From Candidatus Latescibacterota bacterium (lineage in GTDB: Bacteria > Latescibacterota > UBA2968 > UBA8231): a stretch of DNA of 64,000 nt. The position numbers and the translations under genes were made by a program. The notes beneath the pieces were generated by a model. The model made no database searches. It saw only the letters and a list, made by a program, of their open reading frames with translations, and had not been told where the DNA came from. Within the stretch, counting starts at the first letter, position 1. Each line of letters opens with the position of its first letter. This document shows, in pieces, positions 6,788 through 56,781 of this stretch. The stretch lies in NCBI GenBank assembly GCA_965215195.1, contig CBDCDC010000002.1, positions 64,001 through 128,000 on the forward strand, written 5' to 3'.

Positions 6788-8227
6788 TTAGACGATGCTG
6801 GCTCGCAGCCATGCTCGGTAGGCCAGCATGTAGGTGAGCGTGGCGAAGAAGAAGAGGCCGATGACATCGACGACCGCGTGGCGTAGCAGGGTGGTCGCCG
6901 ACATCTCCTCGGTAAAGACCGGCAGGGTGTCGGGGTCGATTTTCTGCCGCGATAGCCCTTGGGCGATGTGGATGTGCGGGCTTTTGGGATCGTCGCGGTC
7001 GAGGGTGAGCATGGTCTGCTTGAACTGCTGGACGTAGATGCGCACCTGCTCGACAAAGCTTTTGTGGCGCGCCAGTCCGGTGCCGGCGAGGGCCTCCATG
7101 CCGTATTGGAAGCAGCCGGTCGGCGACAAGCGCACGATGTGGCGGGCTTTTTCGACCTCCCCGAGGCTGTAAGCCAAAAATTCGTCTTCGCGGTTTTGGA
7201 GAACCCGAAGAAAGGCGTGGTCGGCCTCGGCCAACTGGCGCAATTTTTCGGGTTTTCTCAGATCGCGCCTCCGCGTATGGTTCCTAAGACTACTAATTTT
7301 CATTTTTTCTGGAGGGTTAAACTCCCACTCCATTACAACGGCCTCCCCGAATTCGCGGACCACCACGCGGGAGGCCAGCGCACCGCCAGCCGATGGCCAG
7401 AGCAACACCCCGCAGGTCCACAGCAACAGCACGCCCACCAAGCTGGAGCGCGTACTGCTGCTCCGTATCGACACCCACAGCCCCAATGCAACAAAGCAGG
7501 CCAGATACAGCAGGGCTAGGCCGACCATGCCGACCAAGCGCCCGGCCTCGACCAGACCCAAGTTTACCTGCGAGAGTGCGAGGACGATGAGTAGATTGAC
7601 GACAATGGCGAGGCTTAGGACGAGGGCGAGAGCCAACATCGCGCCGAGGAACTTGCCCAGCAGCAGGGTGTGGCGCGGCAGGCTCTGCGCCATGACCAGC
7701 TTGAGCGTGCCGCGCTCTTTTTCGCCGATGAAGGCGTCAAAGGTGAACAGCAAGGCCATGAGGCTGAGCAGGCCGCCGATGATAAAGACCCAGTCGATGG
7801 CTCGGGTCTTCATCAGTTGGCTGGCCTTGGGGGCCCAGATGCCTTCGATGTCCCAATAGATGAGTGGAAAGGGATCGTAGAACCAAGTGCCGCTGTACTG
7901 AAATCGCCAGCTCGGCGTCCACAGGCGCTCGGGCAGGGCGTCGTTGGCACCCACGGCGCAGAACATGAGGGGGCTAGGTTTTTTATAGATATAGTCCTGC
8001 CCCCCATGGACGATCAGCTTCCACAAGCCCATTTGGGCGTTGCTACGGCCGATTTCTTGCTCGGCTTGGACCTGTTCGAGATAGAGGTCGCGCCGGAACT
8101 CATACGAGCCGCCGACAAAGCTGAGGGCGTTGAGCACCATCAGCCCTACGATCAGCACGAGGGCCAAGCTGAAGCGCAGGCTGATGAGGTGATCGATCAG
8201 TTCGCGTTTTACAATGGCTGCGAGCAT
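6788..8227 (-). CDS. ABC-2-type transporter permease, type B copy 1
   Basis: I.KREL N-terminus, FDAFIGEKERGTLKLVMAQ...LLGKFLG motif, multiple TM helices and large extracytoplasmic loops. Confidence 0.88.
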   Translation of the reverse strand: MLAAIVKRELIDHLISLRFSLALVLIVGLMVLNALSFVGGSYEFRRDLYLEQVQAEQEIGRSNAQMGLWKLIVHGGQDYIYKKPSPLMFCAVGANDALPERLWTPSWRFQYSGTWFYDPFPLIYWDIEGIWAPKASQLMKTRAIDWVFIIGGLLSLMALLFTFDAFIGEKERGTLKLVMAQSLPRHTLLLGKFLGAMLALALVLSLAIVVNLLIVLALSQVNLGLVEAGRLVGMVGLALLYLACFVALGLWVSIRSSSTRSSLVGVLLLWTCGVLLWPSAGGALASRVVVREFGEAVVMEWEFNPPEKMKISSLRNHTRRRDLRKPEKLRQLAEADHAFLRVLQNREDEFLAYSLGEVEKARHIVRLSPTGCFQYGMEALAGTGLARHKSFVEQVRIYVQQFKQTMLTLDRDDPKSPHIHIAQGLSRQKIDPDTLPVFTEEMSATTLLRHAVVDVIGLFFFATLTYMLAYRAWLRASIV

Positions 8228-8410: not shown

Positions 8411-8448
8411 GCCCCGGAATAGCGGCGATTAAGCCACTATCCCGGGGC
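8411..8448. repeat. Cassette intergenic stem-loop GCCCCGGAATAGCGGC-N6-GCCACTATCCCGGGGC
   Basis: Imperfect inverted repeat; further copies at 9366, 12047, 18767 and 29142. Confidence 0.8.
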
Positions 8449-8515: not shown

Positions 8516-9334
8516 CTAGATGTAACCGAACAGAAAATACGGCGTCCCGATGCAGTAAACGAGCTCTACATGGCGCCACATAGCCTTGTCTGGATCCCAA
8601 GCCATGCGGAAGAAGAACGGGATGTGCGCCATTTCGAGGGCGGCGAACTCCTCGGGCTCTTCGACGATGAACATGACCTCGACAAAGGTCTGCGGTTTGC
8701 CCGCTTGGAGGTGCTCTTGGACCTCGCTCTTCATTTTGGAAAATCTGCCCGATACTTCCGTGGGTGGAAGCAGGCCGCGCTCCCTGAGGGACTCGGAATA
8801 AGGGCTGTACTCGGCCTGCCTCTCGGACACCTCAAACGCGCTGTCGAAAAAGGATACCTTTCCGAAGTAGTAATCGTATTCATTCTTGTCGAGGAGTTGC
8901 CGGTGTCCCGCTTTGAGGATGTCAAAAGGCGTCTCGCCTTTTAAGAGGCCCTCGCTTGCAAGCCGGTTTTTCAACTCCTCTATCGCTTCGGGGTTATTGA
9001 CGCCCTCGCGGAGGTAAAACGCGGCGGCGAGGCTGTCGCTACTCGAAACCGAAAAGGCGACTAAGAGATCGTAGAGGTAGGTGCGCAGATCGGCTTCTTG
9101 CTCGGGAGTGATGGGAGTGTCCCCCTCGACGGGGATGGCCGCGATGGCCTGCTGCAGCTCGTCCCCGGCCTCGACGTTTATCATCTCCAAGCTGTTGACA
9201 TAGTCGTGAAAGGCTTGGAGAGAGACTTGCCAGTTCTCGTCCCAGGAGTAGCCGCCGTACTGGGCTTTTGGCTCGGCAGCGGCACTGGAGGCGGCGAACC
9301 AAGCGGCGATTAGGGCGAAATACAAAGTTTTCAT
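8516..9334 (-). CDS. Secreted uncharacterised protein, FYLREGVNNP family paralog 1
   Basis: Signal peptide; shares the YGG, LVAFS.S.SDSLAAAFYLREGVNNP, SFFDSA, EEPEEF and W..E..MWR.VE blocks with 8 paralogs. Confidence 0.9.
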   Translation of the reverse strand: MKTLYFALIAAWFAASSAAAEPKAQYGGYSWDENWQVSLQAFHDYVNSLEMINVEAGDELQQAIAAIPVEGDTPITPEQEADLRTYLYDLLVAFSVSSSDSLAAAFYLREGVNNPEAIEELKNRLASEGLLKGETPFDILKAGHRQLLDKNEYDYYFGKVSFFDSAFEVSERQAEYSPYSESLRERGLLPPTEVSGRFSKMKSEVQEHLQAGKPQTFVEVMFIVEEPEEFAALEMAHIPFFFRMAWDPDKAMWRHVELVYCIGTPYFLFGYI

Positions 9335-9454
9335 CTAGATACCTCTTCTGGGTTTGGGTTGGGTTGCCCCGGAATAGCGGCGATTAAGCCACTATCCCGG
9401 GGCGAGTTAGGGTGGAGGGGCGAGTGGCCTAGAGTAGCCGCTCCGGAAGGGTGG

Positions 9455-9634
9455 TTAGGAGCTGCATACCGGATTCCCGTATGCGTCGCAATAGCACTTG
9501 ACCGCACTACCGATTACGATGCACCAACCGTTATCGCAGTCGGCCCCGCACATATCAGCCTCGGCCTTCTGCGGCAGGAAGCTGACGATCAAGCCCGTGA
9601 GGCTAATGGCCAGCCGGATGATGCGCTTTTTCAT
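9455..9634 (-). CDS. Secreted six-cysteine peptide, variant 1 (59 aa, not in ORF track)
   Basis: Manual translation: MKKRIIRLAISLTGLIVSFLPQKAEA-DMCGADCDNGWCIVIGSAVKCYCDAYGNPVCSS*. AAGGAG RBS; leader identical to 12137..12319. Confidence 0.9.
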   Translation of the reverse strand: MKKRIIRLAISLTGLIVSFLPQKAEADMCGADCDNGWCIVIGSAVKCYCDAYGNPVCSS

Positions 9635-9793
9635 GATAATCTCCTTTGATCTGGTGTGCTGCGTTGTCTCGGAGGCGATCTCCGAGGTGAAGCACTGGCC
9701 GCTAGAGGCCAGTTTAGACGACGTGTTTCATAAGCGTTCCCTCCTTTCTGTTGCTGTTGAAGAGTGTGGGTTGTTGCTTCAGTAAGACTTATC

Positions 9794-9808
9794 GCAATTT
9801 TCGTGCCA
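9794..9808 (-). promoter_or_regulatory. Sigma-54 promoter (-24/-12)
   Basis: TGGCACG-AAAA-TTGC, an exact match to the RpoN consensus. Confidence 0.9.
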
Positions 9809-9952
9809 ATGCGTGATCAGTGGTCGTCAAGTGCGCTGAGTTCTATGATTGTATGAATCCTAAATGACTGTTAAATAATGTCTTATGAAAAATAAAGAAA
9901 TTTTTATCGCCTGTGTCTCAGGCCCTTGCAAAGTCCTTTTGACGGCCTAAAA

Positions 9953-10014
9953 GTGCGACAATACATCGCACAAATGCGTCGAATTATCGCGTTTAGTGCG
10001 TCTAAACATCGCAC
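9953..10014. promoter_or_regulatory. Putative upstream activator sequence: three tandem (G)TGCG-N9-CGC(AC) dyads
   Basis: GTGCGACAATACATCGCAC, TGCGTCGAATTATCGCG and GTGCGTCTAAACATCGCAC, ~145 bp upstream of the sigma-54 site; conserved at five other promoters. Confidence 0.7.
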
Positions 10015-10261
10015 GGACGCGCCTAGCCAGCCGCCATTGCTGGGCACAGGCTCTGCTGATTGATGTCGCGCAGTCGGGCGAATCGGCGAATCGACGAGTC
10101 TGGCCCTGCGGATCAACGGGATTCCAACGAGTTGGTTTTTCGAGTCCCCACAGGGCACCCACCCCATCCCCGGTAGGGGCTGCTCTTGGGGCGGCCCTCG
10201 CAGTGCTAAGGGACAGAGTAGATGAGGATTGGGGCGGCTGGCCGGCGTGGCCGGACGCGAA

Positions 10262-10291
10262 AGGGGCAGCCCATAGATCGGACTGCCCCCT
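10262..10291 (-). terminator. Terminator-like hairpin after permease A
   Basis: GGGGCAG...CTGCCCC stem followed by TTT on the minus strand; repeated near 12790 and 19513. Confidence 0.55.
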
Positions 10292-10314
10292 CTACTTCCT
10301 TATGGGATTTCAGG

Positions 10315-11886
10315 TTACTTGGCGTCGTAGCGGGCAAAGAGCCGGTTGGCGAGGACAAACAGCCCGACTGCATACAGCAACAGAGAGGTTAGCTCCGGCC
10401 AGGCGTGGCGCAGACTCTGGGCGACGGTCCAGCCGCGTTCCTTAAACCGCGGCAGGTCGCGCAGGTCGGCGCGCCAGCCGGAATCATCGTTGAACCACTC
10501 ACGGGAGCCGAAGGCATCGCGCTCTTCGAGGAAGGTGACGATTTGCCCGCGATAGGTGCGTACTTGGGCAATGAAGTCGTCGTATTCGCGTCGGCTGGTG
10601 CCGGCGCAGGCACTGGCGGCTTGGGCATACGCACCGGCGGGCAGGAGGCGCTGGAGATAGGCATTCCAGCGTTGGATGCGGCGGGGGAAGTTTTCGAGCA
10701 GGGGGGCTTTGGCGTTCCAAGCGGTCTGGGCGTACTTCAGGCGCAGGCGCTCGCCGGTGCGGATGATGTCTTGGAACTTCGTAAGCGCGGGCGAATCGAC
10801 GACATTGGATAGATAGAAACCGGCAATATGCTCTTTCAGTTCAGAGTATGGGCCACCCATAATGTTCAATACCGTTCCGCGTCTTCCCTGTGGAGGGAGC
10901 TGCTCGACCATGCGGACGGGCGGATACTTGGTCTGGCCGTGCGTCCGAGCGAGGTCAGTAGCCTCTTGATCGAACTTCTTCCACACTTGCGCGGCTTGGT
11001 GATGGGCTCGCTCGTGCTTTTCGCCCATGTTGGCCTGCTCGTTGAGCAAGGCCGTGATGCTGTCGGGCAGCACAATCGCCAGCAACGCCCACGTGAACAG
11101 CGCGTAAATCAAGCTGGTCGCCGAGCGATGGGTCGCGCACGAGATGGCCAGCCCAATCAGGTAGAACACCAGCAGATACAGCAGCGACAGCGCCAACAGC
11201 AGCCCCAACCGCACCCATTCGCCGAGCCCGACTTCGATATATTCGGTGCCCAACAGCAAGATCGTCAGCAGGATAAAGCCCAAGGCCGTTGGAATGGCCA
11301 GTGTGGTCAGGCCGGCGAGGACTTTGCCGGCGAGGACTTGGGCGCGGCTGACGTTGGTGGTCAGCATCAGCCGCAGGGTGCCGTCCTCCTTCTCGCCGGA
11401 GATGGTCTCGCTGGCGATGAGGATGGCCAACAGGCCGAGCACGAGTTGGAAGATGTACACGATGTCGAAGGAGGCAAAGATGGCGAGGTAGGGATTACCC
11501 GACTGGAAGGGGGCAATCGCCTCGGTTTGGTAGGGCACCTCGAAGAGCAAGACTTTGACGGCTTGCCCCACCTCTTGTTCGACGCCTTGGGCGAACACTT
11601 GTAGGGGGCGCGGGGGCCGTAGCGCACGCGGGGCCGCCTTAGCTACTAAATCCCCCGTGACCGAAGCGTTGTAGTCCGTGCCTAGGGCCGAATATAGGGT
11701 GATTTCGTGCAGTTTGGTTTCCTCAACGGCGCGTTGCGTGAGGTAACTGGCCTTTTTCTGGACATAAGCCTGGCTGGTGAGCAGCCCGTTGGCGATGATG
11801 AGCACCACCGCGAGGGCGGTGCAAGCGGCGAAGCGCTGGCTGAGCAGATGGCTGAGCATCTCTTTTTTGAACACAATGCCGATCAT
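10315..11886 (-). CDS. ABC-2-type transporter permease, type A copy 1
   Basis: IVFKKEML start, ETISGEKEDGTLRLMLT...LAGK motif, multi-TM. Confidence 0.88.
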   Translation of the reverse strand: MIGIVFKKEMLSHLLSQRFAACTALAVVLIIANGLLTSQAYVQKKASYLTQRAVEETKLHEITLYSALGTDYNASVTGDLVAKAAPRALRPPRPLQVFAQGVEQEVGQAVKVLLFEVPYQTEAIAPFQSGNPYLAIFASFDIVYIFQLVLGLLAILIASETISGEKEDGTLRLMLTTNVSRAQVLAGKVLAGLTTLAIPTALGFILLTILLLGTEYIEVGLGEWVRLGLLLALSLLYLLVFYLIGLAISCATHRSATSLIYALFTWALLAIVLPDSITALLNEQANMGEKHERAHHQAAQVWKKFDQEATDLARTHGQTKYPPVRMVEQLPPQGRRGTVLNIMGGPYSELKEHIAGFYLSNVVDSPALTKFQDIIRTGERLRLKYAQTAWNAKAPLLENFPRRIQRWNAYLQRLLPAGAYAQAASACAGTSRREYDDFIAQVRTYRGQIVTFLEERDAFGSREWFNDDSGWRADLRDLPRFKERGWTVAQSLRHAWPELTSLLLYAVGLFVLANRLFARYDAK

Positions 11887-11914
11887 GGGGTGGCTCCTAT
11901 GAGTGGAAGGCGAA

Positions 11915-12043
11915 CGGGCGGGATGCCGTCTCGGTCATCTCGTCGGGCGATACCTCACTGTAACGCTCGTGAAAGTGCAACAGGTCGCGCAAGACTAATT
12001 CGGCGGGAATGAGCGGATCGGGCCAGATGCCGGCCCGCCACAG
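11915..12043 (-). pseudogene. Remnant of the 3' end of the GT2 glycosyltransferase gene
   Basis: Nucleotide match to ~30840-30983 (e.g. ggtcgcgcaagac.aattcggcgggaatgagc.gatcgggccagatgcc). Confidence 0.85.
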
Positions 12044-12136
12044 GTTGCCCCGGAATAGCGATTAAGCCACTATCCCGGGGCGGGTTAGGTGGAAGGTGAG
12101 GGCGGTTGGTCTAGACCAGCCGCTCCTGAAGGGTGG

Positions 12137-12319
12137 TTAGGAGCTGCATACCGCACTCCCGTTTGCGTCGCACTTGCACTCAACTATCCAACCGATTGCG
12201 GAGCACGATGAACCGTTAGGGCAAGTGATGCTGCACCAAACAGCCTCGGCCTTCTGCGGCAGGAAGCTGACGATCAAGCCCGTGAGGCTAATGGCCAGCC
12301 GGATGATGCGCTTTTTCAT
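12137..12319 (-). CDS. Secreted six-cysteine peptide, variant 2
   Basis: Signal peptide ending AEA, mature VWCSITCPNGSSCSAIGWIVECKCDANGSAVCSS; AAGGAG RBS. Confidence 0.9.
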   Translation of the reverse strand: MKKRIIRLAISLTGLIVSFLPQKAEAVWCSITCPNGSSCSAIGWIVECKCDANGSAVCSS

Positions 12320-12478: not shown

Positions 12479-12493
12479 GCAATTTTCGTGCCA
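12479..12493 (-). promoter_or_regulatory. Sigma-54 promoter
   Basis: TGGCACGAAAATTGC; dyad cluster at 12638-12699. Confidence 0.9.
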
Positions 12494-17919: not shown

Positions 17920-18735
17920 TTAGATGAGGTTGAACAGAAAGTTCTGCGGCACGCCGCCGCTGAAATAGGCCTCTACATGGCACCACATAGCCCGCTCTGG
18001 ATCCCAGACCAGCCGAAAGAAGGCCGGGGTGCGCCCCTGCCACGGCCACGGGGAGACCCCGGGCGGCTCTTCGACGATGAACATGATGTCGGCAAAAGTC
18101 AACGACTCGCCTGCCTGTAGAGCTTCCTCCACCTCGTCGCGTAGTTTGGGGTGAAAATTCAAGGTGGTTTTGGGGACCATGCCGTGCGTCTGGAGGTATA
18201 ACCTATAGCTATCGTACGCCTCCTGCATCTCGAATACCTTGAACGCGCTGTCGAAAAAGGACGCGTTCTCGAAAAAGTAATCGCGCTTCGTCATGCCGAG
18301 TATGGCTCTGTGCCCGGCTGCAAACATGGCAAAGGGCGTCTCGCCGATGGGGGCGTCTCTGCTCGCGAGAAATTCTTGCAGGAACTCTATCCCGTCGGGA
18401 TTATGCACACCCTCGCGAAGGTAAAACGCGGCGGCGAGGCTGTCGCTGCCCGAAGCCGAAAAGGCGACCAAGAGTTCGTAGAGCCAATCGCGCAATGCGG
18501 CTTCTTGCGCTAGGTCAATGGGAGCACCCAGATCAACGGGGATCGCCTCGACCGCTTGCCGCAATGCGGCCCCGGCCTCGACCTTCATCATCTCCTGACC
18601 GTGGATGTAGTCGTAGAAGATTTGCAGGCTGTCGGGGTGGGATGAAAAGCCGCCGTAGTGGGACTTGCCTTCCTGTTCTACGCACGCCGACTGGGCGAAC
18701 CAAGCGGTGATTAGGGTGAAATACAAAGTTTTCAT
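17920..18735 (-). CDS. FYLREGVNNP family paralog 2
   Basis: Signal peptide and shared family blocks. Confidence 0.9.
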   Translation of the reverse strand: MKTLYFTLITAWFAQSACVEQEGKSHYGGFSSHPDSLQIFYDYIHGQEMMKVEAGAALRQAVEAIPVDLGAPIDLAQEAALRDWLYELLVAFSASGSDSLAAAFYLREGVHNPDGIEFLQEFLASRDAPIGETPFAMFAAGHRAILGMTKRDYFFENASFFDSAFKVFEMQEAYDSYRLYLQTHGMVPKTTLNFHPKLRDEVEEALQAGESLTFADIMFIVEEPPGVSPWPWQGRTPAFFRLVWDPERAMWCHVEAYFSGGVPQNFLFNLI

Positions 18736-18860
18736 CGGTACACCTCTTCTGGGTTTGGGTTGGGTTGCCCCGGAATAGCGGCGATTAAGCCACTATCCCG
18801 GGGCGGGTTAGGGTTGGAGGAGAGGGCGAGTGGCCTAGAGTAGCCGCTCCTGAAGGGTGA

Positions 18861-19043
18861 TTAGGAGCTGCATACCGCACTCCCGTTTGCGTCGCACTTG
18901 CACTCAACTATCCAACCGATTGCGGAGCACGATGAACCGTTAGGGCAAGTGATGCTGCACCAAACAGCCTCGGCCTTCTGCGGCAGGAAGCTGACGATCA
19001 AGCCCGTGAGGCTAATGGCCAGCCGGATGATGCGCTTTTTCAT
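18861..19043 (-). CDS. Secreted six-cysteine peptide, variant 2 (second copy)
   Basis: Protein identical to 12137..12319. Confidence 0.9.
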   Translation of the reverse strand: MKKRIIRLAISLTGLIVSFLPQKAEAVWCSITCPNGSSCSAIGWIVECKCDANGSAVCSS

Positions 19044-19202: not shown

Positions 19203-19217
19203 GCAATTTTCGTGCCA
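19203..19217 (-). promoter_or_regulatory. Sigma-54 promoter
   Basis: TGGCACGAAAATTGC; dyad cluster at 19362-19423. Confidence 0.9.
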
Positions 19218-22143: not shown

Positions 22144-22989
22144 TTACATGTAGTCAATCAGAAAAAAATGCGACAGTCGAGAGTTATAAAAAGCCTCTAC
22201 AAAGCGCCACGTAGCCCGCTCTGGGTCCCAAGCCAGCCGGAAAAAGAGGGGGGTGCGTATCTGTGCTGCAAACCACCCGGCGGACTCTTCGGGCTCTTCG
22301 GTAATGAACATGATGTCGGTAAAGACCCACTGCTCGCCCGCCTGTAGAGCGGCCTCAATATCTTCCCTCAATTTGGGCTCGTTCCCATACACTGGCCCGG
22401 CAACCACCATGCCGTGGGCCCGGGCGTAGGCCAGATAACTCTCGTAAGTGCCCTGCATCTCGAACACCTTGAATACACTATGGAGAAAGGACACATTTCC
22501 AAAGCGGTATTCATAGTCTTTGTTGTCGAGTGTGGCTCTGTGCTTGGCTTGGAAGAGGGCCAAGGGCGTATCGCCTTTTAGGAGTCCCCGACGCTCTAGA
22601 TCTTTTTTTATTTTTTCTAGGGCATCGGGGTTATTGACGCCTTCGCGCAAGTAAAACTGGGCGGCGAGGCTGTCGCTGCCGGAGACGGAAAAGGCGACGA
22701 GAAAGTCGTAGAGCCAGGTGCGCAGGTCAGCTTCTTGCTCGGAGGTGATGGGGACGCCCGGCTCAACGGGGATGGTTGCTACGGCCTGCTGTAGCTCGGG
22801 GCCCGCCTTGACCTTCATCATCTCCAAGCTGTGGAGATAGTCGATATTGACTTGGAGGCTGTCAGGGTGCGGCGAGAAGCCGCCGTACTGGCGTTTGAGC
22901 TCGGCAGCAACGCTGGAGACGCCGAGATAGATGGCGACCAAAGCAAGATATAGGGTGCGAATGGCCAGCCGGATGATGCGCATCTTCAT
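22144..22989 (-). CDS. FYLREGVNNP family paralog 4 (N-terminus matches the peptide leader)
   Basis: Begins MKMRIIRLAI, then continues as a family protein. Confidence 0.9.
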   Translation of the reverse strand: MKMRIIRLAIRTLYLALVAIYLGVSSVAAELKRQYGGFSPHPDSLQVNIDYLHSLEMMKVKAGPELQQAVATIPVEPGVPITSEQEADLRTWLYDFLVAFSVSGSDSLAAQFYLREGVNNPDALEKIKKDLERRGLLKGDTPLALFQAKHRATLDNKDYEYRFGNVSFLHSVFKVFEMQGTYESYLAYARAHGMVVAGPVYGNEPKLREDIEAALQAGEQWVFTDIMFITEEPEESAGWFAAQIRTPLFFRLAWDPERATWRFVEAFYNSRLSHFFLIDYM

Positions 22990-23147
22990 AACGAACTCCG
23001 TTACGTAGGTTTGCTGCGTTGTCTCGGAGGCGATCTCCGAGGTGAAGCACTGGCTACTAAGGCTGCAAGCCCAAGCCAGTTGAGACGATGTGCTTCATAA
23101 GCGTTCCCTCCTTTCTGTTGTGGGTTGCTGCTTCTGTAGGCATTATT

Positions 23148-30827: not shown

Positions 30828-31883
30828 TCAGGCTGCCCGAGCGGGATGCCGCAGCAGCAGGGCTTCGATCTCGGCTAGCTCGTCGGGCTGGACTTCGCTG
30901 TACCGCTCGTGAAGGTGCAATAGGTCGCGCAAGACCAATTCGGCGGGAATGAGCAGATCGGGCCAGATGCCCGCCCGCCACAGCTCAATTAACCGCAGCT
31001 TGGGGTCGCGGTTTTCCCGCACCATGTAGTCAATGGCTTGGTCCCGGGTGCGCTGTTCGGCGGCGAGTTTGCTCGGGTCGGAAAACTCGTGATAGTGGTA
31101 CAAGTGATACGTCAGGGCGCGGCGGGCAAAGCCCGGGCCGACGCCGGCGCGCTGCAAGCGATAGGCCAAATCCCATCCCTCGGAAAACGGAATGTCCGCC
31201 GCAAAACCGCCCACCTCGCAGAAGGCTTGGCGCGGCACCGCGCTGTTGTGCGGATAAAAGCCGAGAAAGCCCACCGGCGAATCGGGGTGCGCCGCGTACA
31301 GCTCCGCGGCTTGATCCTGCATGGCCTTCAGCTCGTCAAAGGGATAGCCGCCCTCTTGGGCGCGGGCGTGGATGCCGGCAAAGTCGTGGCGAATCTGGTC
31401 TTGGGTAATCAGCACCCGCTCTCGATTGATCAGCAGGAAATCGGCTAAGACGCTCGGGGTGCGCTCTTGGTCAAACACGGCCTGCTGCGGGTCGGGCAGA
31501 TACTCGATGAGGGGCAGGCTATACATGAAGCCGCACAAATAGCGCTGGCACGCCCCGCGCTCCCACTCTGCCCACAGGTGCTCCAACCAATCGGGATGCG
31601 GCAGGGCGTCGCCGTCGAGAAAGGCCACCAACGCGCCCCGCGCCTGTTCGACGCCGGCGTTGCGCGCCCGGCAGCGCCCCACATTGGGCCGCATTCGCAC
31701 CACATGTACCGCTGGATATTCAGCGGCCAGCATGGCGTCCGTGCCATCGGTGCAGCCATCGTCAACGACGATGACCTCAAAACGCTCCTTGGGAAAATGC
31801 TGGCAAGCTAGGCCGCACAACACCAAGCGCAGACGCGCCCGCTGGTTGTGGGTGGCAATGACGACGGAAATATCGGGGTTCAT
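30828..31883 (-). CDS. Glycosyltransferase family 2 (GT-A)
   Basis: ISVVIATHN, EVIVVDDG.TD.T, ARNAG, AFLDGD (DxD) and F..VGGF...E..DL.YRL. Confidence 0.92.
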   Translation of the reverse strand: MNPDISVVIATHNQRARLRLVLCGLACQHFPKERFEVIVVDDGCTDGTDAMLAAEYPAVHVVRMRPNVGRCRARNAGVEQARGALVAFLDGDALPHPDWLEHLWAEWERGACQRYLCGFMYSLPLIEYLPDPQQAVFDQERTPSVLADFLLINRERVLITQDQIRHDFAGIHARAQEGGYPFDELKAMQDQAAELYAAHPDSPVGFLGFYPHNSAVPRQAFCEVGGFAADIPFSEGWDLAYRLQRAGVGPGFARRALTYHLYHYHEFSDPSKLAAEQRTRDQAIDYMVRENRDPKLRLIELWRAGIWPDLLIPAELVLRDLLHLHERYSEVQPDELAEIEALLLRHPARAA

Positions 31884-32494
31884 GGGGTTGTCCTCCGAGG
31901 TATGCCCCCCACCGCCGCCGTTGGCGGCGACTCCCCCCCGAGGGGGGAGGGATGGTTGCCCAAAGTGGAAACCATCTCGGGCGACTCAGCTCTTGGGGGG
32001 GCGTGATGGATAATCTCAAGGGTTAAATGGCATTCGTAGTGCAGCCCTTCGGGAACGGTCAGCGGGCGGTTGGGTTCGGTGGCGGCGTTGGGGTTGGGGA
32101 CCATGAGTTGCGGAATGTCCACGACCGACTTGGAACACATCACCCGGTGGCAGTCTATATGGCCAAAGTAATAATCGAGAAACGCCTCGCTGTGCTGCTC
32201 AATGCGCTGGCGCAGCAAGGGGTCGGTTACGTTGTCCGCGGTCATGGCATGGCGGCCCAAGGCGATGCCGTGAAATTCCACGGGCAACCAGCCGGTTTCG
32301 TGCGCGTACAGCTCTACCCAAGTGTGGCCGAAGATGGGGTTGTCGTACGTGCTAATGCCATAGCGATCTGGTCCTTGCGGCGCGACAGCTAAGCCACCGG
32401 TCACCTCGCGGGCCGGAATGCCCAGCAGACGGCACAGGGCCATGTAGGTGCGGCTCAGGGTAATGCAGTGGCCGCTGTCGTCGCGGAGCGTCAT
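31880..32494 (-). pseudogene. C-terminal fragment of a transglutaminase-like protein
   Basis: G.C...S....ALCR..GIPAR.V.G, H.WVE.Y....GW.PVE core; N-terminus is missing and it abuts the truncated GT gene. Confidence 0.75.
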
Positions 32495-32501
32495 GGCCGT
32501 G

Positions 32502-33139
32502 CTACACGCTAGGCACCGGCCCGGCCGACGGATGGAACGGAGGCACATCGGCCAGCAGGAACGCGCTGCGGTGGGGCCGCTGCTGGGCGAAGTGTTCGGC
32601 GAGGTATTCGTCAAAGCGGCCGGCTTGCCTCGGGAAGTAATCGGGCAGGCGAATGGGGCTGGAGTAGGTGGGCAGGTTGTACGCCGCGTCTATAAAGGCG
32701 ATGTCGATGCCTTCCAAGGCGGCCGTGAGCCGCAGCGTGGGTCGCAAGTCGGCGATGAGCAAGGAGGGCTGCACTTGGCGCACCAGGGCTCGCTCGGCCT
32801 CGACGCAGCGCCTGATCCACTCGTCGTCGTAGTATTCGTACTCGCCCCGGGCTACGTATTCGTCCATGCGCTGTTGCGGCATGGTTTCGATGTCGTAGAG
32901 CGCGAAGCCTTCGTCCGCAATTGCGGCCCCCGCCCGGCGAAGACGACCTCGTACCCGCGCTGGCGCAGCGCACGTGCGACCACGAGCGGGCGAATCACGT
33001 GGGCCAAACTGTAGCCGTGACAGAACACGAGGAGGCGATGCTGGTTGCGCTGGAGGGCTGCCGCCCGCTCCGTTTTGGCCAGAAAGGCGTTCCAAACGGT
33101 CAACCAATCCCACAGCTTTTTGTTCAATTGTGCTAGCAT
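32502..33139 (-). pseudogene. Frameshifted, 3'-truncated GT-B (family 1/28-like) glycosyltransferase
   Basis: LAHVIRPLVVARALRQRGYEVVFAG in one frame continues as ADEGF...VQPSLLIADLRP in another (shift near 32922); the C-terminal domain is absent. Confidence 0.75.
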
Positions 33140-33192
33140 GGCGTTCTGCTTTCACCAAGGGGTGCAGGGTATTGCTTCTGCTAGCATTACTT

Positions 33193-35716: not shown

Positions 35717-37120
35717 TCAGGGCCAGCGGCTGTACTGGCTCACGTCGATGTTGAACTGCTTGATCTTGCGCTGTAAGTTGCGCCGCCCCAACTGGATCTG
35801 CTGAGCAGCGTGGCTGATGTTGCCGCCGGTTTTCTCTAGGGCGTCGCGGATGAACTGCTCCTCAAAGCGCTGGCGCGCCTCGTGGAAGAGCGAGTCGGGC
35901 CGCTCCACCGCTTCGGCTTCTGCCGCGACTGGCTCATCCTGACGGCCGGTGTTCTCTACGATAGTCGCCGGCAGATCCTCCACCTCGATTTCCCGTCCTT
36001 TGGCAAGGGCTAGGGCGCGCATGAGCGCGTTTTCCATTTCGCGCACATTGCCCGGCCAGTCGTAGGCTTCGAGACACTCTAGGGCCTCCTTGCTGACCCC
36101 TTGTATCTGCTTGTTGAAGCGGTCGTTGAGGCGGTCGATAAAGAAGTGGCAGAACAAGGGGATGTCGCCCTTGCGCTGGCGCAGCGGCGGCACCTCAATG
36201 GTGACCGCGTTGAGGCGGTAGAACAAATCCTCGCGGAACTGGCCCGCGGCCACGGCCTCGGTCAAATTGCGGTTGGTCGCAGACAGGACGCGCACATCCA
36301 CCTTGTGAGTCTCGGTCGATCCCACCATCTCGAACTCCCCTTCCTGCAACACGCGCAACAGCCGGGTTTGCAAGCCCACCTCCATGTCGCCGATTTCGTC
36401 GAGGAACAGGGTGCCGCCGTCGGCTTCCATAAAGCGCCCCTTGCGGTTGCGCACCGCGCTGGTGAAAGCGCCTTTTACGTGCCCGAACAATTCGCTCTCT
36501 AGTACGCCCGGGTTCAAGGCCGCGCAGTTACAGCGCACAAAGGGGCCGGCCGCCCGGTCGCTGGCGCGGTGGATGGCCGCGGCCACGAGCTCCTTGCCGG
36601 TGCCGCTCTCGCCGCAGATTAGCACCGGCAGGGGGGTGGAAGCCACGTCTTGGACCAGCCGGTAGATTTGCCGCATCTGCTCGGTCTCGCCGACCATGCC
36701 CAACCCGGTGCCCTGTGCTTGGCGCAGGCGCTCGTTTTCGGCCCGCAGCTTTTGCAACTCGCGGATGTTGTTGATGTGGCTGAGGATTTCTTCGGCGTTA
36801 AAGGGCTTTGCCAGATACCCATAGGCGCCCAGCTTGACGGTTTCTACCGCGCTTTGGACATCTGCATACGCCGTTAAGATGAGCACTTCCTCGGGCCGCT
36901 GGCGCACGTTGAGCTGCCGCAGAAATTCGAGGCCGCTCATCTCGGGCATGTGCAAGTCGAGCAGGATGATGTCGAAGGACTCGTCGCGTAGGAGCGCGAG
37001 GGCCTCGCGCGCGTCTGAGCGGGTTTCCACCGCAAAGCCCTCGCGCCGCAAGATGCTGCTCGACAGCTTGAGCAGGTCCTGCTCGTCGTCGATCATGAGT
37101 ATTTTGCCGTCGTGGGCCAT
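35717..37120 (-). CDS. NtrC-family sigma-54-dependent response regulator
   Basis: Receiver domain, GESGTGKE, ESELFGH.KGAFTSA, LFLDEIGDM, FREDLFYRL, WPGNVRE and a Fis-type HTH. Confidence 0.96.
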   Translation of the reverse strand: MAHDGKILMIDDEQDLLKLSSSILRREGFAVETRSDAREALALLRDESFDIILLDLHMPEMSGLEFLRQLNVRQRPEEVLILTAYADVQSAVETVKLGAYGYLAKPFNAEEILSHINNIRELQKLRAENERLRQAQGTGLGMVGETEQMRQIYRLVQDVASTPLPVLICGESGTGKELVAAAIHRASDRAAGPFVRCNCAALNPGVLESELFGHVKGAFTSAVRNRKGRFMEADGGTLFLDEIGDMEVGLQTRLLRVLQEGEFEMVGSTETHKVDVRVLSATNRNLTEAVAAGQFREDLFYRLNAVTIEVPPLRQRKGDIPLFCHFFIDRLNDRFNKQIQGVSKEALECLEAYDWPGNVREMENALMRALALAKGREIEVEDLPATIVENTGRQDEPVAAEAEAVERPDSLFHEARQRFEEQFIRDALEKTGGNISHAAQQIQLGRRNLQRKIKQFNIDVSQYSRWP

Positions 37121-37123
37121 GTC

Positions 37124-53145: not shown

Positions 53146-54369
53146 CTACGAGGCCGGCGGCTCAATTTGGTCTAATAAAGCGATGACGTCTTTGGGCTGA
53201 ACCTTGTTTTTAAAGAAGAAGATCCCCCCAGGTACATCGGTGAAATCATCCTCGCTGACGTTGAGGTTGGACGAGACGGCCACGAGCAAGTCCTTGCGCT
53301 GAGCTTGGCGCAGTTTTTCGAGCTTGCGCCTTAGGTACTCGGGCCGCCAGTAGCCCATGATTTCCAAAAGCGCCGTGCGGCCGTCGGGATGGCGGAAGGT
53401 AAAGTCCGGGATCATCACCGTCTCTTTGAGGTTGACGATTTCGCTTTCCCGCTCTAGCTGCCATTGGGTTTTGGCCTTGGCAAAGCGCGCGACAAACGTT
53501 TCCTCCAGCAGGGAGTCGTACAGGGTCTGGTCCCGGTAGTGGGAGACTAGGCCCGACTGATCGTCGAGGACGAAGTGCTGACGGCGGCCATCCTTGCGGA
53601 CGATAGCGGCTTGCATTGACCAGCGGGTACACAGCAATAGGGCCGGGAGGAAAATCGCCATTTGCAGGCCGTATTTCTGCGAGTGGCGGAACATACTCAC
53701 CGGGCCATCGAGCCCGATCTCATAGCCGGCATCGACATCGCCTTCAATGGTGTGGATCAGCCGGTAGAACTTGATGAACTTGAAAAGCTGCTTGTAGCGC
53801 ACCGGCAGGTTGCGGTACACGCTTAGGCGCAGGACTTCGCAGCGGTAGAGCATGGCTTGGGCTAGTGCCACGTTGTAGCGCAGGAGCAACTCGTTGGGCG
53901 AGGGCGCGGCAAAGGTCGCAAGCTGGTGGTTTTCGGGCAGGTCGGCGTACAGCCCTGCGAGTACGTCTGCGCTGTTGATCTGGTGTTTGAGGGCGACCTG
54001 TTCGAGCAGATCCTCGCGCTTGACTGGGTAGATGAGGCTGGTCTCGCGGACGACCGGATGGTGGGCGCGGGCTAAGGTAAAAACGGCGCGGCGCAATTCT
54101 TCGGGGGGCTGGGGGCTGGCGACGTGGAATTCGCAGTAGTGATCGCAGAGTAGCTTGGCTAGGCCGCGCTGGATGCGGTAGTCGGTGCGGTCCCCGGCGA
54201 GCAAGTGGAGGGCGTGTTGTAGCTCTCGCCGGGTTTTGCCTTGGTGTTCGGCGTGGACCTCGATGAGTGCTTGGGCTAGGTCGATCAGGGCCGGGTCCTC
54301 AACGGCGACATAGCGCGGTTCAATATAGGGGCCGCGCGAGCGAGTAAGCAGCAGATCCGAGGTCAGCAC
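53146..54369 (-). CDS. DUF790 family (Bax1-like) endonuclease
   Basis: Start reassigned to GTG LTSDLL; LYADL, RYN.ALAQ, GP.S.F....KYG, DS.LE..F, MIPDF and LEIMGYW.PEYL. Confidence 0.9.
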   Translation of the reverse strand: MLTSDLLLTRSRGPYIEPRYVAVEDPALIDLAQALIEVHAEHQGKTRRELQHALHLLAGDRTDYRIQRGLAKLLCDHYCEFHVASPQPPEELRRAVFTLARAHHPVVRETSLIYPVKREDLLEQVALKHQINSADVLAGLYADLPENHQLATFAAPSPNELLLRYNVALAQAMLYRCEVLRLSVYRNLPVRYKQLFKFIKFYRLIHTIEGDVDAGYEIGLDGPVSMFRHSQKYGLQMAIFLPALLLCTRWSMQAAIVRKDGRRQHFVLDDQSGLVSHYRDQTLYDSLLEETFVARFAKAKTQWQLERESEIVNLKETVMIPDFTFRHPDGRTALLEIMGYWRPEYLRRKLEKLRQAQRKDLLVAVSSNLNVSEDDFTDVPGGIFFFKNKVQPKDVIALLDQIEPPAS

Positions 54370-54374
54370 GGTGC

Positions 54375-55730
54375 CTACTCGTAGGCTTCGTGGCGGCGGC
54401 GGCGGTCGCTGATGCGGTCTTCGACCGTGTCCTTGGAGACCACTTCGTAGAGCACGGCCTCCTTGCCTTGGCGGCGGCGCAGGATGCGCCCGAGGCGCTG
54501 GACGTGCTCGCGGATAGTTCCCGAGCCAGAGAGGACTACCGCGACGTTGGCTTCGGGGATGTTGACGCCCTCGTTGAGCACTTTTGAGGCGACGAGGGCG
54601 AGGTACTCCCCCTTGTTGAAGGCTTCGAGAATGGCCTTGCGCTCCCGCGTGCGGGTGCGGTGGGTAATGGCCGGGACTAGGAAGGTGCGGGAAATTTGAT
54701 GGACGGTCTCGTTGTCGTTGGTAAAAATCAACACGCGGTCGCGCGGGTGGGCCTTGAGGATATCTTCGAGGACGCGGACCTTGGCGGTCGCGCCGAGGGC
54801 GAGCTGGCGGTGGCGGCGGTAGGCGTGCATGGCGCGCCGGCCGCTGGTGCTTTGGGCCGAGAGCATGACGAAGTGCCGCCAGCCATCGGCCGTGCCGAGG
54901 CGGATGTTCTTGTCGGCGAGGAAGGCCCGGTACTCGTCGCGGGCGGCCTCGTACTGGACGCGCTCCTCGGCGACCATATCCACTTGGCGGCGCTCGACGC
55001 GGTAGTCGGCCAAGTACTCGCCGGACAAGGCGCGGATGCCGCGCTCGTACGCGAGCGGACCGACGAGGGTGTCGAGGAGCACGTGGCGGCCATCGGCGCG
55101 TTCCGGCGTGGCCGTCAGCCCTAGGCGGTAGGGTGCTAGGCACATTTCAGCGGCGTGGCTGTACATTTCGCCGGGCAGGTGGTGGACCTCGTCGAAGACT
55201 ATGAGGCCGAAGCGGTTGCCGTAGCGGTCCATCTGCATATAGGCACTGTCGTAGGTGGCGACGGTCAGGTCGGCTAGCTCGTGGTAGCCGCCGCCGAGCA
55301 GGCCGACCTCAACAGCAAACGAGCGGCTGAGCAGGTCGTACCACTGGTTCATTAGGTCAATGGTCGGAGCGACGACGAGGGTGCTGCGCTGGACTTCTTC
55401 CATAGCCATGAGCGCGACCTGCGACTTGCCCGTGCCCGTGGGCAAGACGACCACGCCGCGGCAGCCGTGCTGTTGCCAAGCGGCGATGCTTTCGGCTTGG
55501 TGCGGGTGCGGCTCAGGTGCGGTGCGCAGTTGCAGGGAAAGGGTATTGTAGCGCGGGGCCGTATTCTTGAATGCGACTCCGTGCCGCTTGAGGTGTTCGA
55601 CGCTTTCGCGGTAGAAGTGGGCTTGGGCGCGCCAGTGATCGACGCGCACGTCCCAGACAAAGGCCGGGGGCGCATCCGCTCCCCGATAGTCGCGCAGGAG
55701 CAAGGTTCCTTCTTCAAAGGTCAGACGCAT
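54375..55730 (-). CDS. XPB/Rad25-like SF2 DNA helicase
   Basis: VVLPTGTGKS, DEVHH, LGLTATPER, LNEGV..P and QRLGRILR; start at MRLTFEEG. Confidence 0.92.
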   Translation of the reverse strand: MRLTFEEGTLLLRDYRGADAPPAFVWDVRVDHWRAQAHFYRESVEHLKRHGVAFKNTAPRYNTLSLQLRTAPEPHPHQAESIAAWQQHGCRGVVVLPTGTGKSQVALMAMEEVQRSTLVVAPTIDLMNQWYDLLSRSFAVEVGLLGGGYHELADLTVATYDSAYMQMDRYGNRFGLIVFDEVHHLPGEMYSHAAEMCLAPYRLGLTATPERADGRHVLLDTLVGPLAYERGIRALSGEYLADYRVERRQVDMVAEERVQYEAARDEYRAFLADKNIRLGTADGWRHFVMLSAQSTSGRRAMHAYRRHRQLALGATAKVRVLEDILKAHPRDRVLIFTNDNETVHQISRTFLVPAITHRTRTRERKAILEAFNKGEYLALVASKVLNEGVNIPEANVAVVLSGSGTIREHVQRLGRILRRRQGKEAVLYEVVSKDTVEDRISDRRRRHEAYE

Positions 55731-56763: not shown

Positions 56764-56781
56764 GGAGTGTTGGAATCCGCA

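Follow-up and report, generated by a model that had tools for sequence, protein, structure and literature searches.

Polymorphic toxin-immunity cassettes are known from class II bacteriocin loci, from CdiA-CT/CdiI and from the colicins with their immunity proteins. Conotoxins and legume NCR peptides are built as a conserved signal followed by a hypervariable mature part, and RiPPs, the prochlorosins for example, are marked by a leader that is conserved and a core that is hypervariable. Small peptides of the disulfide type, in which the signal stays constant and the core is hypervariable, are textbook matter in animals and plants and, to our knowledge, have hardly been described in bacteria outside the RiPPs. 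In the mussel, the cysteine-rich peptide superfamily MgCRP-I likewise combines a conserved signal with a hypervariable mature part (PMC4558851). The bacterial cis-defensins, in which a cysteine-stabilised helix packs on a beta-sheet, are reported mainly from Proteobacteria, among three phyla in all, and the term "Latescibacter" is absent from the text (PMC11561630).

Here we describe an unnamed family of small peptides in uncultured Latescibacterota, a lineage whose biology is known from genomes only. The stretch of DNA analysed (the window, 64,000 nucleotides) holds three of the genes, two of them followed by a member of a secreted protein family here called S270 and the third by a GT2 remnant:

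9455 to 9634, minus strand: peptide gene A, 59 aa, a leader and a six-cysteine core
9557 to 9634, minus strand: leader-coding part of gene A
9458 to 9556, minus strand: core-coding part of gene A, 33 aa with six cysteines
9455 to 9457, minus strand: stop codon of gene A
12137 to 12319, minus strand: peptide gene B, 60 aa, with the leader of A and a core that differs from A
11900 to 12061: remnant of a GT2 gene in place of an S270 gene, after peptide gene B
18861 to 19043, minus strand: peptide gene C, 60 aa, protein sequence the same as that of B
17920 to 18735: S270 gene of the conserved type (S270c), next after peptide gene C

An earlier note, made from the sequence alone, had reported a leader shared by the peptides at 9455, 12137 and 18861 and a mature part at 9455 unlike the other two. 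The ORF list agrees residue for residue: the first 26 residues are the same in A, B and C, and the cores of B and C are the same. The cysteine spacing that it gave as common to all three, C-x3-C-x4/5-C-x8-C-x-C-x7-C, was recovered by a six-frame regular-expression search of the whole window at three places, A, B and C only. In DNA identity, A and C match at 78/78 positions of the leader and 71/99 of the core, with 486/522 in the 5' intergenic region plus UTR and 110/120 in the 3' spacer; the cores of A and B differ by 28 substitutions of all types plus a 3-nt indel. N-x-S/T sequons occur in the core of B and C and not in that of A. As read from the family sequences, the mature parts are hydrophobic, with a charge that ranges from acidic to neutral.

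Homologues of like length, in databases and in relatives' genomes, confirm the earlier claim that 9455-9634 is a real gene. The ORF is kept as a 58-62-aa protein in 14/14 database candidates and also in relatives' genomes, and this constancy of length, together with the invariant cysteines, excludes a chance ORF. The gene had been called hidden; it was indeed absent from the earlier reader's ORF track, but NCBI/ENA contains a 59-aa protein of its 90% cluster. Gene A, though small, is real and encodes an exported peptide of 33 residues with six cysteines. In an alignment of 24 sequences the six cysteines, one glycine and the leader end LPQKA.A are invariant. Homologues that lose the cysteine spacing and the frame, which the earlier note had named as evidence against it, did not appear among them: frame, length and six cysteines are kept in 24/24. 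The family occurs in 12/31 genomes of one Latescibacterota genus (E<=1e-5) and in 0/30 genomes outside it, and in relatives the same leader heads several different cysteine frameworks. Neither the peptide nor S270 matches a family in Pfam or NCBIfam, a sequence-profile search of the PDB returned a single row (E 1.4), and the ESM Atlas gave for both only scores of 0.75-0.78 to unnamed clusters.

The leader comprises M-K-K-R, a 13-residue hydrophobic stretch and P-Q-K-A-E-A, with alanine at -3 and -1, and conservation within the family stops exactly at its A-x-A in all frameworks. As read from the sequence, it has the basic n-region, the h-region of 10-15 hydrophobic residues and the small residues at -3/-1 that mark a Sec/signal peptidase I substrate, in keeping with the AxA signal proposed before, and cleavage is predicted after A-E-A.

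The core was modelled by AF2 (15 sequences, mean pLDDT 95.1) as four strands and no helix, a compact all-beta mini-protein with six cysteines. The mini-protein of the earlier note is in line with this model; of the two structural checks that it had suggested, prediction gave a confident fold, but Foldseek with the core model gave no significant match among 13 rows. The sole recognisable rows are EGF-like domains and follistatin hairpins, with MIC6 EGF domains at ranks 3-4 and the EGF rows at E 3.6-3.8, TMq 0.43-0.46 and a probability of about 0.1; no knottin, a fold with 1-4, 2-5 and 3-6 disulfides and a threaded knot, is among the rows. Like EGF domains, the core has some 30-40 residues, six cysteines, two small beta-hairpins and a C-x-C with the last cysteine 7-8 residues on. 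Unlike them, it has no significant Foldseek row, and EGF Pfam models match none of the 24 members even at E<=10. An EGF-like domain is recognised by an EGF profile match plus 1-3, 2-4 and 5-6 disulfides, and with no Pfam match and a weak fold match we rejected that assignment.

Compared with the cis-defensins (PMC11561630), the peptide is likewise secreted and bacterial, with three pairs of cysteines and the motifs C-x3-C and C-x-C, but in the four-stranded core model C-x3-C lies on a strand, a helix is absent, and the 13 Foldseek rows include no defensin. Because the model is without a helix, the core falls outside the CS-alpha-beta definition, which bonds C-x3-C on a helix to C-x-C on a beta-strand; a bacterial cis-defensin was therefore rejected, and the defensin kinship drawn in the earlier note is not supported. 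Nor are its three disulfides borne out. DsbA, DsbB, VKOR and Thioredoxin_4 were not found in the 95%-complete genome, and a crude count of exported-like ORFs gave 306 with even and 426 with odd cysteine numbers, hence no even bias; for these reasons disulfide formation in the periplasm is unsupported. Two homologues (P0018 and P0032) carry the first four cysteines only, a hint that Cys5 and Cys6 would pair.

The contrast between a variable core and a constant leader, claimed earlier, is clear over 7 independent pairs, with pN 0.276 in the core versus 0.046 in the leader (Fisher p 9e-23). The diversifying selection that had been proposed along with it did not emerge: core pN/pS is 0.97 and rises to 1.12 when the invariant columns are left out (p 0.5), values from simple Nei-Gojobori counts and not significantly >1, which fit relaxed constraint and a mixture of constraint and diversification equally well. 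Synonymous divergence is also threefold higher in the core (0.285 vs 0.098, p 1e-4), which points to old core lineages in flanks that recombine or are homogenised. The family resembles conotoxins, MgCRP-I and NCR peptides in its single signal, invariant cysteine framework or frameworks with hypervariable residues between, multigene nature and several frameworks per leader. It differs from them in being bacterial and operon-encoded, without a pro-region and with a co-varying binder, and it is related to them neither in sequence nor significantly in fold.

Contigs from RNA libraries (X1-X4; four runs, four studies) have pieces 90-99% alike on the S270 gene, and X1 (9617-9781) and X4 (9545-9704) also have pieces on the 5' UTR and leader. 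These are relatives' sequences, represented by contigs only, with 9426-9533 of the core outside their cover, and they hint only weakly at transcription because DNA carry-over is possible in RNA libraries; X1 gives no transcript start because its contig runs past 9781 into unlike sequence. Literature searches found no description of the peptide family, and supplementary files might list such genes; in a paper on sponge Latescibacterota (PMC12993501), the words "bacteriocin" and "sigma" are absent.

Three genes lie near gene A:

8516 to 9334, minus strand: S270v, a 272-aa secreted protein of an unnamed family, predicted binding partner of peptide A
6788 to 8227, minus strand: ABC-2-type permease paralogue of 479 aa (ABC479; ABC2_membrane_2 + DUF3526), next gene of the module
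10315 to 11886: permease partner type of 523 aa (ABC523), upstream of the promoter

S270 is a family of secreted proteins of ~270 aa with at least 491 clusters and no name. An S270 ORF directly follows 17/17 peptide genes compared, a set that left out gene B and two relatives' genes with another framework (L029:16007 and L033:3691), none of which is directly followed by an S270; at the latter two, ABC523 and ABC479 stand before one. Copies B and C are without an adjacent S270v, B being followed by the GT2 remnant and C by S270c. S270 outnumbers the peptide, with nine genes versus three in the window and 25/31 versus 12/31 genomes of the genus, and 12/12 peptide genomes hold S270. One S270 (22144-22989) begins with the peptide's own first residues and has the same promoter and UTR before it, which fits co-transcription.

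Predicted together, peptide A and S270v gave a median ipSAE of 0.74 (runs 0.74, 0.38 and 0.76) versus 0.02 for the best control, with partner pLDDT >=77 and at least 47% of contacts common between runs. The pass mark was reached by 58/80 solved complexes and 2/110 mismatched pairs, counts that hold only roughly because we used our own alignments. Both families being unknown, recall of a solved complex is unlikely, and peptide A appears to pair with the S270v encoded beside it, even with one of the three runs at 0.38 only. In S270v (n=10) the 20 predicted contact columns have a pairwise identity of 0.48 versus 0.80 in the other 232 (Mann-Whitney p 4e-6); the same columns in S270c (n=6) give 0.82 versus 0.86 (p 0.5). 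These figures support the view that S270v, the subtype encoded beside the peptide, is hypervariable on the surface modelled as the contact, though as variable surface loops are common, low identity at a predicted interface is supportive and not proof. The 67% S270 identity between modules A and C was considered as co-divergence with the core and rejected, the subtypes being different (S270v and S270c).

The control region of gene A and the regulators at the head of the island are as follows:

9996 to 10014, 9975 to 9990 and 9953 to 9971, minus strand: three palindromic sites (about TGCGA-N7-TCGCA)
about 9840 to 9905: AT-rich stretch after the palindromes
9794 to 9808, minus strand: sigma-54 -24/-12 element TGGCACG-N4-TTGC; the start codon of A follows 159 nt later
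12479 to 12493 and 19203 to 19217: identical sigma-54 elements before B and C
23148, 30376, 33193 and 35507: four further sigma-54 elements of the island
9635 to 9782, minus strand: predicted 5' UTR, from a presumed transcription start
9715 to 9732, minus strand: 5-codon mini-ORF in the 5' UTR
9694 to 9713 and 9668 to 9686, minus strand: hairpins in the 5' UTR
about 9640 to 9647, minus strand: Shine-Dalgarno sequence
9367 to 9402, minus strand: 16-bp hairpin without a U-run, between the peptide stop and the S270 start
35717 to 37120, minus strand: NtrC-type sigma-54 activator (Sigma54_activat), island head
37124 to 39247, minus strand: dCache-HAMP histidine kinase, island head

Each of the three peptide genes has an exact promoter of this kind, with three palindromes before it and a structured 5' UTR after it. 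The sigma-54 motif occurs seven times in the window against 0.19 expected, a number reached by 0/100 shuffles, and precedes 17/19 relatives' peptide genes at 130-178 nt upstream of the start. Gene A has what would define a sigma-54-dependent promoter, namely GG at -24 and GC at -12 within TGGCAC-N5-TTGC, an rpoN in the genome (200 bits), an enhancer-binding protein and candidate upstream sites. The palindromes at 9953-10014 are a candidate upstream activating sequence, at which the enhancer-binding protein may bind; such sites are common to 6/7 promoter regions, and columns -335 to -306 have a mean pairwise identity of 0.90 over 12 loci. The same activator/kinase pair flanks the island in relatives, and we infer that these two proteins (35717..39247) are candidates for the control of all seven promoters. 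Across the genome, the motif is also found before ORFs that by eye are PspA-like, small-HSP-like and ammonium-transporter-like. PspA, small HSPs and ammonium transporters are typical sigma-54 targets. There are 25 strict sites in the genome, 10 of them in the window or before peptide genes of a second family; a sizeable share of the best sigma-54 promoters thus serves peptide operons, which is unusual for sigma-54. In the 5' UTR, the second hairpin region has an identity of 0.88 across the genus, and Rfam gave no match at E<=1 over 9300-10400. An intrinsic terminator after the peptide gene was rejected, as the terminator scan called none and the hairpin there is without a U-run; copies of the same 34-nt hairpin element lie at 8413-8446 and 18769-18802. 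The sigma-54 promoter, the S270 partner and the genus-wide island had all been missed in the earlier reading.

The reading that we prefer is a polymorphic secreted peptide with a cognate binder, most likely a bacteriocin-like toxin and its immunity protein, to which we give a probability of roughly 0.4. The peptide gene would be the first cistron of a sigma-54-driven operon, its promoter probably turned on by the dCache kinase and NtrC-type activator of the island via the three palindromes. The pre-peptide would lose its 26-aa Sec signal after A-E-A, releasing the 33-aa all-beta six-cysteine mini-protein outside the cytoplasm, where it may bind S270v by adding its second strand to an S270v edge strand. 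S270v would then act as the neutralising or immunity protein for an antagonistic peptide, S270 copies that stand without a peptide would represent orphan immunities, and the part of the ABC-2 permeases would be to aid export or protection. Because the core and the predicted S270v contact surface vary while leader, promoter, UTR and neighbours are alike, the unit behaves as a polymorphic cassette.

The locus can be compared with the systems named at the outset. As in bacteriocin and other toxin-immunity loci, the gene for a small exported peptide comes first and the binder gene directly after it in the 17 genes compared, and transporter-like membrane proteins share the island with a kinase/regulator pair. 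As in toxin-immunity cassettes, a constant export part heads a variable payload, variability is concentrated in that payload and, in the model, in the matching surface of the binder, and binder copies occur as orphans, in form at least, in the excess of S270 genes in the window. It is unlike bacteriocins and CdiA in having a Sec signal in place of a double-glycine leader or a large delivery domain, unlike known immunity proteins, which are small and cytoplasmic or membrane-bound, in having a 250-aa secreted binder of unknown fold, and unlike bacteriocin loci in its predicted control by sigma-54 and an enhancer-binding protein and in that neither an ABC ATPase, by motif scan, nor a C39 peptidase, by Pfam scan, was found.

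Several observations weigh against a bacteriocin. The acidic-to-neutral hydrophobic cores are unlike most antimicrobial peptides, which are cationic; the substitution counts give no proof of positive selection on the core; the Dsb-type enzymes searched for were not found; and B, C and the two genes with another framework stand apart from an S270v or from any direct S270. In a diderm, a Sec signal carries a peptide to the periplasm only, and no outer-membrane route was identified. The permease domains are clear (ABC2_membrane_2, E 1e-25 to 1e-28), but a scan for Walker A and LSGGQ motifs, run as a motif and not an HMM search, found no ABC ATPase in the first 250 kb of C2, the contig of the window, which includes the island, nor in 12 relatives' island loci. 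Matches to MutG, SagH and GldF are far under the family cut-offs, and a LanFEG-like exporter or immunity transporter was rejected, since by the motif scan the permeases are without a cognate ATPase gene.

The alternative that survives best, though we consider it unlikely, is that the peptide is a signal or effector, either a secreted cue for the island's dCache kinase, closing an autoinduction loop, or a small ligand of eukaryotic (EGF-like) type directed at the animal host or at neighbours, with S270 as carrier, chaperone or receptor. A kinase and an activator do head an island whose promoters they probably drive, the non-cationic cores are atypical of membrane-active antimicrobials, and the complex model has the peptide binding a secreted protein. 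EGF-like domains and follistatin hairpins are the only Foldseek rows that can be recognised; the records of relatives are MAGs, and among the RNA runs with related sequence one is labelled sponge metagenome. The EGF rows, however, are not significant and find no echo in Pfam, a signal read by a single conserved kinase should neither vary so much nor come in several cysteine frameworks, and a neighbouring binder with matching hypervariability is more in keeping with an arms-race pair than with a carrier.

We regard as distinctly improbable a RiPP-like precursor, glycosylated for instance in the manner of glycocins, in which the island glycosyltransferases would modify cysteines or Ser/Thr/Asn residues, with a transglutaminase-like (papain-fold) domain as processing enzyme. 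Like RiPP precursors and glycocins such as sublancin, the peptide has a constant leader, a hypervariable cysteine-bearing core, several copies and glycosyltransferases in its island. In L029, L031, L034, L035 and L040, an 838-aa fusion of a macrolide-GT-like GT1 with a transglutaminase core, and a GT2, immediately precede ABC523 and the type-I peptide; the same pair adjoins a second, unrelated cysteine-rich peptide family in this genome, and that no Dsb machinery was found also speaks for such modification. Against it, the hydrophobic leader is a classic Sec signal, unlike the recognition leader of a RiPP, the GT matches are generic and far below family cut-offs, and the sequons are lacking in core A. 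In the window a GT2 gene is present and the peptide genes are intact, but the gene for the GT1-transglutaminase is broken, and Pfam scans of the window ORFs found no radical-SAM, LanM/LanB/LanC, YcaO or C39-peptidase ABC exporter. A RiPP precursor would be expected to have a non-Sec leader and a dedicated enzyme alongside, neither of which was found; with the GT genes at hand, a glycosylated variant of the peptide may still exist.

Less probable still is a periplasmic metal or redox buffer whose six cysteines bind Cu, Zn or Fe or serve redox: C-x3-C and C-x-C motifs among six invariant cysteines in 33 residues would suit it, as would a genome in which neither a Dsb system nor an even-cysteine bias was found, but hypervariable non-cysteine positions, several frameworks and a co-varying partner are not expected of such a protein, and Pfam scans found no metal-homeostasis genes in the island. 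That the core was diversified by a retroelement, or that the ORF is a frame arisen by chance in an intergenic repeat, has next to no likelihood: the edges between near-identical flanks and divergent core are sharp, but the sole two reverse-transcriptase matches (C2:200788 and C2:298818) are far from the window (C2:64001-128000), the genome holds no template-like second copy of either core, the differences between A and B are of mixed types with an indel, and the frame is conserved throughout the alignment; a diversity-generating retroelement was accordingly rejected.

Returning to the bacteriocin-like pair, its concrete form is a 33-aa peptide and a 252-aa binder, which belong to a whole unnamed bacterial family of small peptides with constant signal and hypervariable core and to a large unnamed partner family. 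If the pair serves antagonism or recognition, it offers a molecular handle on competition or discrimination between close relatives, and, if true, adds compact, naturally diversified scaffolds. More tentatively, and we would call it doubtful, the lineage may follow a toxin-library logic, in which one head of signal peptide, promoter and UTR, homogenised by recombination, serves many unrelated cysteine frameworks, each with a co-diversifying secreted S270 binder of a new fold, and all under a sigma-54 enhancer switch; if true, the lineage would have a polymorphic peptide-binder system of a new class, cone-snail-like in kind. The second peptide family in this genome has another leader and a sigma-54 promoter and is followed by FG-GAP proteins, an arrangement which suggests that a toxin-library strategy could be general in the lineage.

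The window carries three minus-strand genes for six-Cys peptides, each of which follows an exact copy of the sigma-54 element TGGCACG-N4-TTGC.

Peptide genes and sigma-54 elements
9455-9634, minus strand: peptide A ORF, 59 aa
12137-12319, minus strand: peptide B ORF, 60 aa
18861-19043, minus strand: peptide C ORF, 60 aa
9794-9808, minus strand: exact element, 159 nt 5' of the peptide A start codon
12479-12493, minus strand: exact element, 159 nt 5' of the peptide B start codon
19203-19217, minus strand: exact element, 159 nt 5' of the peptide C start codon

All three have the same residues 1-26 (the leader); over their full length B and C do not differ, and A departs from both in the core (the mature part) only. 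Together with a six-frame search in which the Cys spacing occurred at exactly three places, namely these genes, this bears out the earlier note's description of a constant leader before a variable six-Cys core. At the DNA level, the copies are near-identical in ~400-520 nt of upstream sequence, in the leader and in the 3' spacer, but not in the core.

Identity between the gene sets around peptides A and C
ABC523 gene (523-aa ABC-2-type permease): 0.91
intergenic region and UTR: 0.93
leader: 78/78 (DNA)
core: 71/99 (DNA)
3' spacer: 0.92
ABC479 gene (479-aa ABC-2-type permease): 0.97

Counted over seven independent pairs, pN/pS was 0.47 for the leader, 0.97 for the core and 1.12 (p 0.5) for the core minus its invariant columns. 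The core is thus hypervariable, but these ratios do not demonstrate positive (diversifying) selection as proposed earlier. The core pS of 0.285 is three times that of the leader (0.098; p 1e-4), and either the cores predate their flanks or recombination homogenises the flanks. A retroelement mechanism for core diversification was excluded.

That the peptide gene is real was confirmed in a large protein collection, where 14/14 candidates were homologous (all 58-62 aa, 59-95% identical to A), and by a 24-sequence alignment in which all members keep the six Cys, a single Gly and the end of the leader (L-P-Q-K-A, then A); the gene is also already annotated in the public record (a member of the peptide's cluster). 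Source records are Candidatus Latescibacterota MAGs, one of them labelled Gemmatimonadota. Among 61 genomes, matches at E<=1e-5 occurred in 12/31 of the window's genus, our own counted, and in 0/30 outside it. Members were nameless in every source searched; Pfam, NCBIfam, a PDB sequence profile and the Atlas returned nothing, and no description was found in the literature searched. In relatives, several other Cys frameworks, as well as truncated cores, stand behind the same leader, which in one case is joined to a DUF1573 C-terminus; this 46-65-aa ORF of leader plus last DUF1573 residues (L035:5826-6023 and P0027) is a recombination scar within the relatives' island. Searched with a profile, 1.84 billion representatives yielded 24 proteins at E<=1e-3; three of them are longer (88, 185 and 424 aa) and have a signal of their own, followed by a core-like module. 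Such six-Cys modules behind the signal of longer proteins come from other metagenomes (P0034, 88 aa; P0036, 185 aa; P0025, 424 aa; P0035 and P0038, ~460 aa). P0025 has two core-like units; at the end of each comes a Gly/Cys-rich stretch with a hydrophobic segment and an Arg cluster, an arrangement that resembles a C-terminal sorting signal. Two repeat proteins matched the C-x4-C-x-A-[IV]-G hairpin five times each.

All three parts of a Sec signal are present in the leader, which has Ala at -3 and -1 and, judged from its sequence, would be cleaved. The 33-aa core was modelled with a mean pLDDT of 95.1 as four strands (2-7, 10-15, 20-23, 29-32); Foldseek gave no significant relative for this model, EGF-like domains and follistatin hairpins appearing among weak rows only. 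Disulfides in the core are plausible, and two homologues that retain Cys1-4 only hint at a Cys5-Cys6 pairing. In our own 95%-complete genome there was no family match to DsbA, DsbB, VKOR or Thioredoxin_4, and a crude count showed no even-Cys bias among exported-like ORFs. Secreted Cys-rich peptides of two or more families are nonetheless encoded in this genome.

The window has seven sigma-54 sites, every one on the minus strand, with 0.19 expected; three palindromes (9953-10014 in copy A) and an AT-rich stretch are common to 6/7 promoter regions. The genome has rpoN and 25 strict sites, and the motif's meaning in this organism is supported by the strict sites that also precede PspA-, small heat-shock protein- and ammonium transporter-like ORFs (named by eye). 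In relatives, 17/19 peptide genes have the motif (<=1 mismatch) 130-178 nt upstream. The transcript as predicted is well folded (z -4.5): its 5' UTR has two hairpins, and a further one, of 16 bp, lies beyond the stop codon. There was no Rfam match, and a terminator scan called none. Over 12 loci, conservation was 0.90 for the third palindrome (-335 to -306), 0.88 for the second UTR hairpin, 0.83-0.84 for the leader and only 0.55-0.71 for the core. Four RNA-library runs (four studies) contain contigs of relatives that match the S270 gene and the UTR plus leader at 90-99%; since DNA carry-over is possible, this is no more than a weak hint of expression. Identical 34-nt hairpin elements (8413-8446, 9368-9401 and 18769-18802, minus strand; 16-bp stem, no U-run), with a diverged copy at C2:93144, lie 3' of peptide genes and of one S270 gene; they could be attenuators, RNA-stability elements or recombination elements. 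Additionally, the 5' UTR contains a five-codon mini-ORF (9715-9732, minus strand), which has a strong Shine-Dalgarno sequence, lies 5' of both hairpins and recurs at the equivalent place in copies B and C; identity of this region is 0.81 across the genus, and the frame is longer in a paralogous UTR at 23000-23100.

The peptide genes belong to an island (~6.8-35.5 kb) that also encodes nine paralogues (40-66% identical) of S270, a secreted ~270-aa protein without known family. Its other genes are those for six large ABC-2-type permeases, which fall into two kinds, for DUF1573 and TPR proteins and for a GT2, together with a GT1-transglutaminase-like gene that is broken. Neither this island nor 12 loci of relatives yielded an ORF with ABC ATPase motifs. 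Two genes head the island.

35717-37120: NtrC-type activator
37124-39247: dCache-HAMP kinase

The order conserved in the genus is kinase-activator, then promoter, peptide, one or two S270, ABC479, DUF1573 and TPR. An S270 ORF lies directly 3' of the peptide gene in 17/17 genes examined, three others being left out: peptide B, followed by a GT2 remnant, and L029:16007 and L033:3691, followed by ABC523-ABC479-S270. S270 occurs in 25/31 genomes of the genus and 0/30 outside it, and in at least 491 database clusters, all nameless. The paralogue at 22144-22989 (minus strand) opens with the leader's first residues behind a peptide-type sigma-54 promoter and UTR, and looks like a deletion fusing the two cistrons. 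The GT2 remnant (11900-12061) spans 42 aa; the GT1 (macrolide-GT-like) glycosyltransferase-transglutaminase core gene (31880-33190, minus strand) is shortened and has in-frame stops; in relatives it is one 838-aa gene.

S270 (8516-9334, residues 21-272) modelled with core A passed our complex mark, with a median score of 0.74 (runs 0.74, 0.38 and 0.76; best control 0.02), a partner pLDDT of 77 or higher and no less than 47% of contacts common to runs; the mark was reached by 58/80 solved complexes and 2/110 mismatched pairs, counts that are rough because our own alignments were used. Peptide strand 8-15 is predicted to pair with S270 residues 191-199, with further contacts at 116-124, 180 and 263-271. 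Behind type-I peptides comes the variable subtype S270v, often with the conserved S270c next. In S270v (n=10), identity was 0.48 in the 20 predicted contact columns vs 0.80 in the other 232 (Mann-Whitney p 4e-6), and 191-199 ranked second in variability among 9-residue windows; for S270c (n=6) the values were 0.82 vs 0.86 (p 0.5). The S270 model itself (pLDDT 80; a helical and an alpha/beta part) had no significant fold match.

Taken together, the unit joins a constant head for export and regulation to a variable Cys-rich payload and a matching binder that is itself variable; many further copies consist of the binder only. Bacteriocin-immunity and polymorphic-toxin cassettes follow the same logic, and a function of this type is the most likely one, at a probability of about 0.42. 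A signalling or host-directed ligand carried by S270 is rather unlikely and ranks second; a glycosylated RiPP-like product is improbable, and a metal or redox peptide very improbable. The peptide and its partner are best filed as a polymorphic secreted peptide-plus-binder kind, with new families and unusual sigma-54 control.

The window's genome encodes a second, unrelated Cys-rich peptide family (91-95 aa; loci L060-L062), in which variable cores follow a different conserved leader.

C2:464267-464542, plus strand: second-family peptide
C2:2165260-2165547, minus strand: second-family peptide
C2:2185289-2185570, minus strand: second-family peptide

Each has an exact sigma-54 motif ~145-160 nt upstream and ~700-aa FG-GAP/FlgD_ig (T9SS-tail-like) paralogues 3' of it; genes for GT2, DUF4159, transglutaminase-like and TPR proteins are close by. 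A second, more divergent island at C1:779000-801000 (L063, L004) repeats S270-ABC523-ABC479 units with DUF1573, transglutaminase-like and GT2 genes; at C1:786595 a distant leader-bearing Cys-rich peptide lies 3' of an S270 gene rather than 5'. The window's right part holds defence-like genes.

43770-45296, plus strand: STAND/ATPase with Swt1-like HEPN domain
53146-55143, minus strand: DUF790 protein
56767-58702, plus strand: AAA_21/AAA_15 ATPase, then HNH protein
58904-62098, plus strand: 1064-aa AAA_11/AAA_12 helicase
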